A stretch of DNA of 64,000 bases from Escherichia coli (GTDB lineage Bacteria; Pseudomonadota; Gammaproteobacteria; Enterobacterales; Enterobacteriaceae), in the NCBI RefSeq assembly GCF_003334815.1, contig NZ_QOWO01000007.1. One strand, written 5' to 3'. The position numbers were made by a program, and so were the translations under genes. Below are positions 46,475 through 48,781 of this stretch, piece by piece (the stretch's first letter is position 1; every line of letters begins with the position of its first letter). The notes under the pieces are model-generated. The model worked only from the letters and a program-made list of their open reading frames with translations. It made no database searches and had not been told where the DNA came from.

Positions 46475-48781
46475 ATGTTTAAGGCCAGGAATTGCGGCTG
46501 GATACGTTTACTGCCCCTGTTTATGCTGAGTCTACCAGTACAGGCGGAACTTCGATGTGTTGCAAATGCAGTTGATATTGAATCATTTTTTTCTGCGGCT
46601 ACCGCTGAAGATAAACAACAAGTTGAACAAGCTATCAACAGTAGCGTGAATCTTGTCCCCTTCGGTTTATCTGCATCGAACTGGAAAGTGCATCGTGGCG
46701 ATTTAGTGGTAGAAGGTAATATAGAGAGTAATCAAAAATTGATTGTTCTTGGGAATTTGACAGTCAAAGGTAATATTTCCACTTTCTCTCTTTCTAATCC
46801 ATGGGTTATTCTCGGTAACGTGACGGCAACGAATATAGTTGCGGATTCACCACTGTTAATTACCGGTTCGATAAATGCAAGTGGACTGGTATTTATCGAC
46901 TCATATTACGATAATCCGTCTACGATTAAGGGGAGTATTAATGCGCGTGGGATATTTATCAATGACATAATTGCACCTGTTGTTGCGTCTTCGACAAATA
47001 GTGAATTCATGGTCCGTGCGAGTGACAAACATGACACTGAAAATGTCAAAAAAGCGCTGATGATAATAAATCCTGATGCATATTATTGGGGGCTAATTAA
47101 TGATGAAGATGCTCTGAAAGAAATTTTTAAGCGAAGCAATATTCGCATGGCAGGGAATGTCTGTAATCAGATGAAAAAAGAAGCGCTGTTTCGCCCTAAG
47201 CCTTCTCCTGAGTTAGTGCAAGAATTGCAAATGCTGGATGAAGGCAAAGTTGCTGCATTTGAAGGACGAGACATTGCGACATTTGATCTTGCCGTAATGC
47301 GAACTCTCCCAAGGCTTAAAGGAATTTCAGCTAACCTACGCAAACAACTTATTAATAGCAATGATGAACAAACGATTGAAAGTATGGCGAGATATATGCC
47401 TGACAATGAGATTCTGGAGTTGACCGATCAGCAATTGGGTTACCAGCCTGTTGTTCTGGGGTTGCTCGACCGTGAACCGCTCTCTGTCGAAATAATGACG
47501 CGAATGAGTCGTCTACCTGATGGTGTCGGTCCGTTGAATCTTGCGCTACGTGAAAATCTCCCTCTGGATATCGTCATGACTCTGGCGAAAAGAGATTGGG
47601 ATATGATCATTCAGGAGCTTTATAAAGATGCGTGGTTATTGCCTGAATCCATTATTGATGGCTATATCCGCAGTGATGATTCCTCTATTCGTCAGGTCGG
47701 TGCTGGAGGACAACTCACCTACAATCAGGCAATGCAGTTGGCGAACGATTCATCAAACAATGTTGTCACAAGCTTAGCGTTCAAGCTGGCAGAGATGAAA
47801 CACCATGGTCAATTGTTGCGGATGACGCCACAAGAGAGTGACAAAGTTGCAGGCTATTTATACCAAAAATTCGAGAATGACGATGATCTAATACGTGTGT
47901 TATTTTTAGCATTGCCAGATAACTTACAGTTTAATTTTGTTAAAAGGATGGAGAAAAAATCCCCGGCCTACTTTTGCTGTCGGGATATGCAGGTAATTCA
48001 CTCTGACGCTGCTTTACAACGGTTATTGACACGTTTCAACGATCCTGAAGGGTGGAGTAATCTGGCGAAAAATCAGTATCTGAGCACGTCGATGAAACAA
48101 AAAATTTGGCAACGTGCTTTATCGCATCGGAAAAATAATCCGAAAGCAGATTCAGATGCATATGAAACCAGCGCTGATATGATTTTGTCTGAGCTGATTA
48201 GCCACGGCGAAGTTGATGACCAGATGCTATTAAATGCCACCGCCCTGATACGTTCGGACGACTGGGACTTTTTAGAGAGTGCATTAATTAGTTGGGATAA
48301 TTTACCCGCTGTTGTTCTCAAGGAATTACAGCAAAACACGCCACGCAATGATATTTGGGCGAAGTTTTTTCTGAGGCAGGAAAACAGTTCCCGTGCGCAG
48401 GTTGACGAAGCGTTACGTGTTTATTATGCACTAGACCCCGATGCGTTAGCACAACTGGATGTACTGGCAAAACAACCGGATCGTATATGGTGGAGTACAC
48501 TGGCGAAAAGCAATCTCACATTTTTCAAGTTCGGCGCACTTAACAACCGCCACACACCGCCTGCAGTACTGGCGGCAGAAATTGATCCCGAGTGGTGGAT
48601 TGTGGCGATGAATAATCCCCGTTTTCCAGTTGATGTATTAAAGGCGAGGCTGAAACGTGATCCTTTGCTGGCGTTAGAGCTTGTTAACCCTGAACTGGAT
48701 TTAGTCCGCCAGCTGGCGCTTAACGGTAAGACGCGCGCAATACGGGAACAAGCGATGAGAAAACTTGATGAGTTGTATTGA
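46475..48781 (+). CDS. ydbD: uncharacterised exported protein YdbD
   Basis: 768 aa from ATG; signal peptide; N-terminal G-N-I/V-x repeats; long helical C-terminal region. Confidence 0.8.
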   Translation: MFKARNCGWIRLLPLFMLSLPVQAELRCVANAVDIESFFSAATAEDKQQVEQAINSSVNLVPFGLSASNWKVHRGDLVVEGNIESNQKLIVLGNLTVKGNISTFSLSNPWVILGNVTATNIVADSPLLITGSINASGLVFIDSYYDNPSTIKGSINARGIFINDIIAPVVASSTNSEFMVRASDKHDTENVKKALMIINPDAYYWGLINDEDALKEIFKRSNIRMAGNVCNQMKKEALFRPKPSPELVQELQMLDEGKVAAFEGRDIATFDLAVMRTLPRLKGISANLRKQLINSNDEQTIESMARYMPDNEILELTDQQLGYQPVVLGLLDREPLSVEIMTRMSRLPDGVGPLNLALRENLPLDIVMTLAKRDWDMIIQELYKDAWLLPESIIDGYIRSDDSSIRQVGAGGQLTYNQAMQLANDSSNNVVTSLAFKLAEMKHHGQLLRMTPQESDKVAGYLYQKFENDDDLIRVLFLALPDNLQFNFVKRMEKKSPAYFCCRDMQVIHSDAALQRLLTRFNDPEGWSNLAKNQYLSTSMKQKIWQRALSHRKNNPKADSDAYETSADMILSELISHGEVDDQMLLNATALIRSDDWDFLESALISWDNLPAVVLKELQQNTPRNDIWAKFFLRQENSSRAQVDEALRVYYALDPDALAQLDVLAKQPDRIWWSTLAKSNLTFFKFGALNNRHTPPAVLAAEIDPEWWIVAMNNPRFPVDVLKARLKRDPLLALELVNPELDLVRQLALNGKTRAIREQAMRKLDELY

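Follow-up and report, generated by a model that had tools for sequence, protein, structure and literature searches.

The ydbD gene of Escherichia coli: a predicted exported protein of two solenoid domains from a rare modular family

The 64,000-nucleotide stretch of Escherichia coli DNA analysed here (contig NZ_QOWO01000007.1 of assembly GCF_003334815.1; the whole stretch is called the window below) carries at positions 46475-48781 of the plus strand the gene ydbD (b1407), which encodes 768 amino acids (aa) and belongs to the E. coli K-12 genes still awaiting characterisation. Our analysis supports a concrete and testable picture of its product. The coding sequence (CDS; 46475..48781, +, 768 codons plus stop) appears in the list of open reading frames (ORFs) as a single long ORF, read at its longest from the first possible GTG as 46469..48781 (+), and the RefSeq CDS of a K-12-derived chromosome matches it exactly from the ATG at 46475 to the stop. 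The coordinates given in an earlier reading of this DNA, hereafter the original prediction, were thus correct. A Shine-Dalgarno-like GGAG (46466..46469, +) was read directly from the sequence 5 nucleotides (nt) 5' of the ATG. The gene order is ydbA (an autotransporter), pdxI (= ydbC), ydbD, ynbA, ynbB, ynbC, ynbD and azoR, which agrees with the placement between ydbC and the ynb operon described earlier. Directly 3' of pdxI stands a terminator-like hairpin with a T-run (46422..46457, +; hairpin 46422-46447), with a 10-bp stem that contains 3 GC pairs and a T-rich tail, leaving about 17 nt ahead of the ydbD ribosome-binding site; the interval from ydbD to ynbA contained no terminator-like site. 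An Rfam search of 45300-49300 gave no matches, and the opposite-strand ORFs within ydbD are mechanical ORFs without support. RefSeq names the product "DUF2773 domain-containing bactofilin", so the comparison with bactofilins made in the original prediction was right but already the database name of a gene that is catalogued and uncharacterised.

Relatives of YdbD were collected by an exhaustive HMMER search (E<=1e-3) of 1.84 billion representatives, among which the family is rare: 157 clusters, with about 40 full-length members at 16-31% identity. YdbD begins with what is predicted from charge, hydropathy and low model confidence to be a Sec signal peptide (residues 1-24, MFKARNCGWIRLLPLFMLSLPVQA; 46475..46546, +). 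It shows basic residues K3, R5 and R11, a hydrophobic core and V-Q-A preceding the predicted cleavage site, with ELRC following from E25; inspection found no lipobox. This assignment was made by inspection and hydropathy, and the n-region, the h-region and the small residues at -3 and -1 of a Sec-type signal peptide are all present and conserved among homologues. A crude hydropathy rule found a hydrophobic N-terminus in 28 of 43 homologues, and several of the exceptions resemble the tails of signal peptides. In P0006 (L001 5851-6090), the closest full-length homologue among the matches listed, the public gene call begins too far downstream, and an in-frame upstream ATG restores the signal peptide MLKLNILTGCIIMIGLNSFAQS, followed by AQW. 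The seeming lack of a signal peptide in P0008 and P0061 looks like the result of similarly shortened gene calls. A signal peptide is present in the homologue from Tahibacter soli. The earlier description of an exported protein therefore fits both the n-, h- and c-regions of YdbD and the hydrophobic N-termini of most homologues, and export is, as judged from these sequences, a predicted trait of the YdbD family.

A full-length AlphaFold2 run on an alignment of 44 sequences (A1) gave a confident model, with a mean predicted local distance difference test score (pLDDT) of 88.9 and a predicted template modelling score (pTM) of 0.81. It divides the protein into four parts: a disordered stretch at residues 1-27 (pLDDT <50), an ordered segment at 28-69, a beta-helix at 70-181 and 43 helices at 188-768. 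The ordered N-terminal segment, taken by DSSP as residues 25-69 (46547..46681, +; pLDDT ~80-97), consists of short strands and a helix at 44-53, and in the model it probably caps the beta-helix at its N-terminal end. Residues 70-181 (46682..47017, +) form a right-handed three-sided beta-helix of about 5-6 turns of about 18 residues each (range 17-22); each turn is built of three short strands, and its corners are occupied by Gly or Gly-Asn. When the N-domain was modelled apart (residues 28-200, on a domain alignment of 50 sequences, A2) its pLDDT was 86.6. Structure prediction had been put forward as a check on the original prediction, and the modelled beta-helix and 43 helices bear out its two-part description.

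The G-N-[IV] repeats on which that description leaned are likewise real. The three peptides quoted earlier, LVVEGNIESNQKLIVLGNLTVKGNIS, GSINASGLVFID and GSINARGIFIND, are all present in the translation. Residues 70-165 contain six instances of the pattern G-[NS]-[ILV] (at 81, 93, 99, 114, 131 and 153), against a single one in the 600 residues outside them; in 20000 shuffles of this segment a count of six was never attained. At the DNA level, a direct repeat with 54-nt (18-codon) spacing lies within the beta-helix coding region.

The C-terminal domain, described earlier as about 600 aa of helical repeats, is modelled as an alpha-solenoid of about 580 aa (residues 188-768; 47036..48778, +), whose 43 helices make paired repeats of mostly ~26 residues of LRV/HEAT-like type by DSSP and Foldseek; the ~26-residue period is clear over residues 272-428 in the DSSP assignment of the model. 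Foldseek comparison of the whole model with the PDB returned only ARM/HEAT solenoids (designed armadillo, karyopherin-beta2, the PP2A A subunit) at E 5e-5 to 1e-3. Their template modelling scores (TM-scores) are low, at most 0.3, which points to a generic alpha-solenoid with a superhelix shape of its own. The final 81 residues, the last helical repeats of the solenoid, are DUF2773 (PF10971; residues 688-768; 48536..48778, +; E 2.3e-45, model positions 1-81 of 81), the sole significant Pfam match of YdbD, and this domain is also carried by P0006 and P0008, the two closest full-length relatives among the matches listed. The family consensus of the C-region is a tandem D....VR..LA....LP, and W..LAK[NS] motif repeats are visible at the DNA level. 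Among 44 family members, Pfam finds LRV_2 in 9, LRV in 8, HEAT_2 in 1 and DUF2773 in 6 at E<=1e-3, with LRV_2/LRV matches rising to 17-18 of 44 at E<=0.1. The LRV, LRV_2 and HEAT profiles give no match to E. coli YdbD itself; because only other family members match them, its LRV/HEAT membership rests on homology. Like LRV proteins (PF01816/PF25591) and HEAT/ARM scaffolds such as the PP2A A subunit and importin-beta/karyopherin-beta2, YdbD is a solenoid of short paired helices; unlike them it is predicted to be exported, and its superhelix has a different shape.

Whether the beta-helix makes YdbD a bactofilin needs closer consideration. The structural matches of the N-domain are spread over several kinds of right-handed beta-helix: the Pet autotransporter passenger (score 11.3, 3.3 Å, 120 residues aligned), tapirin (11.3, 2.6 Å, 121 residues aligned), the bactofilin BacA (2n3d; 11.0, 2.5 Å, 100/103 residues) and the bactofilin TtBac (6ria; 10.1, 1.8 Å, 86/89 residues), together with two-partner-secretion (TPS) domains, adhesins and NosD. 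Its AFDB50 neighbours, once the entries from E. coli itself are set aside, are mostly annotated 'polymer-forming cytoskeletal protein' or CcmA, at E 3e-5 to 1e-2 and TM-scores of 0.5-0.7. These matches show that fold and dimensions are bactofilin-like. YdbD shares with bactofilins (PF04519/DUF583; BacA 2N3D, TtBac 6RIA, H. pylori CcmA) a triangular right-handed beta-helix of about 6 windings of about 17 residues with corner glycines. The resemblance is at the level of fold only, and other right-handed beta-helices score equally well. At the sequence level, the Pfam Bactofilin profile (PF04519), which is the only non-DUF match, reaches a non-significant E 0.05 (14.3 bits) against YdbD; at E<=1e-3 it matches 0 of 43 full-length homologues, and its best value among 16 other relatives is 8e-3. 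The N-domain family profile searched against the PDB gave BacA at E 5.4 and MinC at E 1.3, and hhalign against the BacA and TtBac domains gave 30% probability over 27 columns, with a template profile of 2 sequences only. The BacA and TtBac templates came from a PDB search seeded with a CcmA sequence.

Bactofilins have a core beta-helix between disordered tails and assemble into non-polar filaments by end-to-end stacking; a short motif at the N-terminus attaches them to the cytoplasmic membrane (10.1101/617639). YdbD differs in having a signal peptide of the cleavable type in place of a cytoplasmic membrane-targeting peptide, and in having the ordered segment 25-69 and a folded 580-aa alpha-solenoid where bactofilins have disordered tails. 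Because both ends of the modelled beta-helix run into ordered structure, polymerisation of YdbD appears unlikely. That YdbD is nevertheless a true polymerising bactofilin, in the periplasm or on the cytoplasmic membrane face, with its hydrophobic N-terminus as an anchor and its solenoid arms decorating the filament, would be in keeping with the RefSeq names, the annotation of its AFDB neighbours, the Pfam match, the corner glycines and the ~18-residue turn. Set against the weak profile matches and the very different flanks, we regard this as very doubtful. A related idea, that YdbD and its signal-bearing relatives are extracytoplasmic bactofilin-like proteins whose beta-helices stack into periplasmic filaments or oligomers displaying LRV arms, seems highly improbable. 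A polymer outside the cytoplasm would extend bactofilin biology to the periplasm, and such stacking would create, in a species to which a bactofilin is not usually ascribed, a periplasmic 'exoskeleton' or scaffold by which envelope proteins are organised. Of the original phrase 'bactofilin-like polymer-forming', then, the likeness of fold stands, whereas the connotation of a polymer sits poorly with the ordered flanks and sequence homology is not demonstrable. The database label 'bactofilin / polymer-forming cytoskeletal protein', which rests on likeness of fold and a sub-threshold Pfam match, may mislead; that it is backed by neither sequence homology nor domain context is one of the points added here. 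Where ydbD is interrupted, the RefSeq name is 'polymer-forming cytoskeletal protein' for the N-terminal fragment and 'DUF2773 domain-containing protein' for the C-terminal one.

Other beta-helix proteins are no closer. The C-terminal domain of MinC (PF03775) and the FapA beta-solenoid (PF03961) are, like YdbD, small right-handed beta-helices with rungs of G-D/N-hydrophobic type. Their sequence matches are weak and all below family thresholds (FapA 7e-5 in one relative, MinC_C 0.03, MinC E 0.012, the last being the only NCBIfam match to the YdbD N-domain, over residues 69-126), and unlike YdbD these proteins are cytoplasmic, with other partner domains and functions. The Pet/Hbp passengers, the FHA/HxuA TPS domains, tapirins and NosD have helices far longer than the 5-6 turns of YdbD. 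They depend on a beta-barrel, TpsB or ATP-binding cassette (ABC) partner, and none exists in YdbD or nearby. YdbD itself has no beta-barrel or TPS domain, its neighbours are pdxI and ynbA, and the nearby autotransporter gene ydbA is a separate gene.

Family comparison brings out a different feature of the beta-helix. The N-domain family conserves W70, H73, G75-D76-L77, the corner glycines and D164, together with Y-D-D (101-103), S-W-G (123-125), Y-N-D (144-146) and F-E-V (149-151). The polar motifs are spaced by 22, 21 and 20 residues, that is by one turn, and in the DSSP register of the model this spacing means that they should stack on one corner of the beta-helix. Such a stacked polar ladder suggests a ligand-binding edge. 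E. coli YdbD has lost most of it: at the ladder sites it carries I-S-T, A-D-S, Y-Y-D and S-T-I, and it differs at 13 of 31 family-conserved N-domain positions, six of them polar (Y101, D102, D103, S123, N145, E150). The closest full-length relatives among the matches listed (27-31% identity) keep the ladder.

The beta-helix module also occurs in other architectures. Elsewhere it is joined to LRR, ankyrin or DUF285/PARCEL repeats in place of LRV. In metagenomic proteins with these repeats it lies at the C-terminus (P0117, P0140, P0150, P0121, P0113 and others), and in the actinobacteria Streptomyces and Kitasatospora it stands alone, making up cytoplasmic proteins of about 205 aa (L003-L006, L008). 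Pfam found nothing significant on the module of these relatives, with Bactofilin best at E 0.008-0.05. The fusion partners are all protein-binding repeat scaffolds, which fits a binding-scaffold logic. A scan of representative genomes with the single pattern YNDFTFE (alignment A3) gave 7 loci, a thin sampling of the taxonomic spread. No shared gene neighbours were found among six homologue loci and one Streptomyces locus, and the homologue genes are typically monocistronic. The E. coli copy is a degenerate member of this rare modular family, and its recognition as such is the second point added here.

The ladder could be read in another way, with the family being enzymatic. The stacked H-x-G-D-L, Y-D-D, S-W-G, Y-N-D and D-K would then form an active or metal-binding site on the beta-helix, acting on an envelope glycan as in polysaccharide lyase and hydrolase beta-helices, the solenoid would position the substrate, and the E. 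coli protein would have degenerated catalytically. The recurrence of conserved acidic and aromatic residues on the same corner at turn spacing is what such a site would look like. We nevertheless think it quite unlikely. The original prediction had seen no enzymatic motif, and none emerged for YdbD in Pfam, NCBIfam, PADLOC, PHROGs or PDB sequence searches; a catalytic profile or motif of beta-helix glycan lyases or hydrolases (pectate-lyase-like) found no match in YdbD, and the canonical members of the family likewise gave no enzyme-family match in Pfam, NCBIfam or PDB sequence searches. The beta-helix has only 5-6 turns and lacks the long loops that shape the active-site clefts of lyases, the fusion partners are all protein-binding repeats, and the E. 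coli ORF is intact and under some purifying selection despite the loss of most of the ladder.

ARM, HEAT and LRV solenoids generally hold extended protein or peptide partners. We propose that YdbD is a Sec-exported, monomeric, non-enzymatic binding scaffold of the periplasm or envelope, a two-domain solenoid protein, and give this reading a probability of roughly 0.5. The signal peptide would be removed at the predicted site between A24 and E25, leaving a mature protein of about 744 aa, which would comprise a short rigid triangular beta-helix of bactofilin-like geometry and the ~580-aa LRV/HEAT-type alpha-solenoid ending in DUF2773. The helical-repeat arm may hold an extended protein or peptide partner and the beta-helix could serve as a second, rigid interaction module, with YdbD acting as a monomer, not as a cytoskeletal polymer. 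The analysis itself establishes the ORF, the features of the signal peptide, the fold, the absence of enzyme signatures, the properties of the family and the divergence of the E. coli copy; the periplasmic location, the monomeric state and the scaffold role are inferred. If YdbD forms no polymer it would be an ordinary accessory envelope protein, and the weak constraint on the gene and its uneven distribution suggest a role that is minor and conditional.

The E. coli member of the family has diverged, is rich in AT and under weak constraint, and its expression is very low. Its GC content is 43.4%, with 40.8% at third codon positions (GC3) and a GC3 of 35% in the N-domain; ynbB has 43.6%, the window 49.9% and pdxI 53%. 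A low-GC block extends over 46250-50500, which suggests horizontal acquisition and possibly silencing by H-NS. Of 5426 complete E. coli genomes, 3991 (74%) carry ydbD and 26% lack it. In some complete genomes it is interrupted by the insertion sequences (ISs) IS5/IS903B, ISKpn26, IS1 or ISVsa5 (H1-H11, H26, H49, H50), and it is partial in others. The ratio of nonsynonymous to synonymous substitution rates (dN/dS) between ydbD alleles is ~0.3, and higher in the N-domain. Low GC, patchy presence, IS hits and dN/dS together indicate a horizontally acquired, weakly constrained accessory gene.

In the work of Price et al. (10.1101/038851), YdbD and the neighbouring YnbB belong to a set of six proteins expressed at less than 1 part per million (ppm) but rated important for fitness in minimal glucose. 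Silencing by H-NS would fit expression at that level. Bury-Moné et al. found ydbD 3.9-fold up upon sigma-E overexpression and labelled it 'induced by methylglyoxal' (PMC2731931). A ChIP-exo (chromatin immunoprecipitation with exonuclease) study of YciT has ydbD among the targets, and in iron(III)-selected E. coli B mutations in ydbD swept. The methylglyoxal link, traced by citation, reportedly goes back to a sensitivity screen by Kim et al. 2007 (PMID 17846588). None of the papers cited on ydbD deals with mechanism.

These data raise the prospect that ydbD in E. coli is a horizontally acquired, largely silent gene drifting to loss, with no significant present function, and that its phenotypes are indirect, for example through polar effects on ynbABCD. 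Such an account would make sense of the GC and GC3 values, the very low expression, the absence from 26% of complete genomes, the IS5, IS1 and IS4 insertions, the dN/dS with its rise in the N-domain, the lost family-conserved residues and the failure of any full-length relative to exceed 31% identity among the 150 top-scoring representatives listed; a polar effect would be compatible with the missing terminator-like site before ynbA and the flagging of both ydbD and ynbB in one fitness screen. On the other hand, full-length matches occur in ~3800 genomes, an uninterrupted ydbD CDS of full length is annotated in 36 of 40 evenly sampled records, dN/dS is clearly below 1, the AlphaFold2 model is confident, which would be unusual for a decaying sequence, and independent screens report phenotypes. 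On balance we consider this account unlikely.

Several points weigh against the proposed periplasmic scaffold and should be considered. The scaffold role is an argument from architecture, and the capping of the beta-helix ends is judged solely from the high pLDDT of the modelled flanks. The conserved acidic and aromatic ladder may mark a catalytic or metal-binding site, not a binding edge. The N-domain-only relatives of Streptomyces and Kitasatospora (~205 aa) have no signal peptide, so the beta-helix module is not intrinsically extracytoplasmic. The methylglyoxal phenotype is without obvious link to a scaffold, and a candidate sigma-E promoter upstream of ydbD was rejected, the best match being 9/12, a score reached 377 times in the window.

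Two other candidate roles were set aside. A functional link between ydbD and ynbABCD was unsupported, as the ynb genes adjoin no homologue examined. A role in defence or in phages found no backing in PADLOC (0 matches for three proteins) or PHROGs (0 for YdbD and a non-significant E 0.0068 for P0052).

Some minor observations concern databases and the neighbourhood. Two AFDB entries named 'Phosphatidate cytidylyltransferase', A0A077ZK33 (1855 aa, attributed to Trichuris trichiura) and A0A1X3J1I9 (486 aa, E. coli), contain the YdbD N-domain at 94-98% identity; bacterial contamination and gene models that fuse ydbD, ynbA and ynbB are the probable explanation. On the minus strand at 46832-46962, in the AT-rich 5' part of ydbD, lie two antisense sigma-70-like promoter matches (10/12 and 9/12); since the region holds fewer such matches in total than shuffling would lead one to expect, the pair is probably due to chance. 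Downstream, ynbC (50469-52226) has, relative to the K-12-derived chromosome, a 1-nt deletion in a T-run (~50493-50498, T6 vs T7) and a further 2-nt deletion at ~51584, which split the gene into three ORFs (50469-50798, 50525-51652 and 51696-52223), making it either a true pseudogene or the product of a homopolymer sequencing error. Upstream, ydbA (39576-45344) is in the window an intact autotransporter ORF of 1922 aa, where the K-12 copy is a pseudogene interrupted by IS30. The rest of this 12-kb neighbourhood differs from K-12 at only 6 positions.

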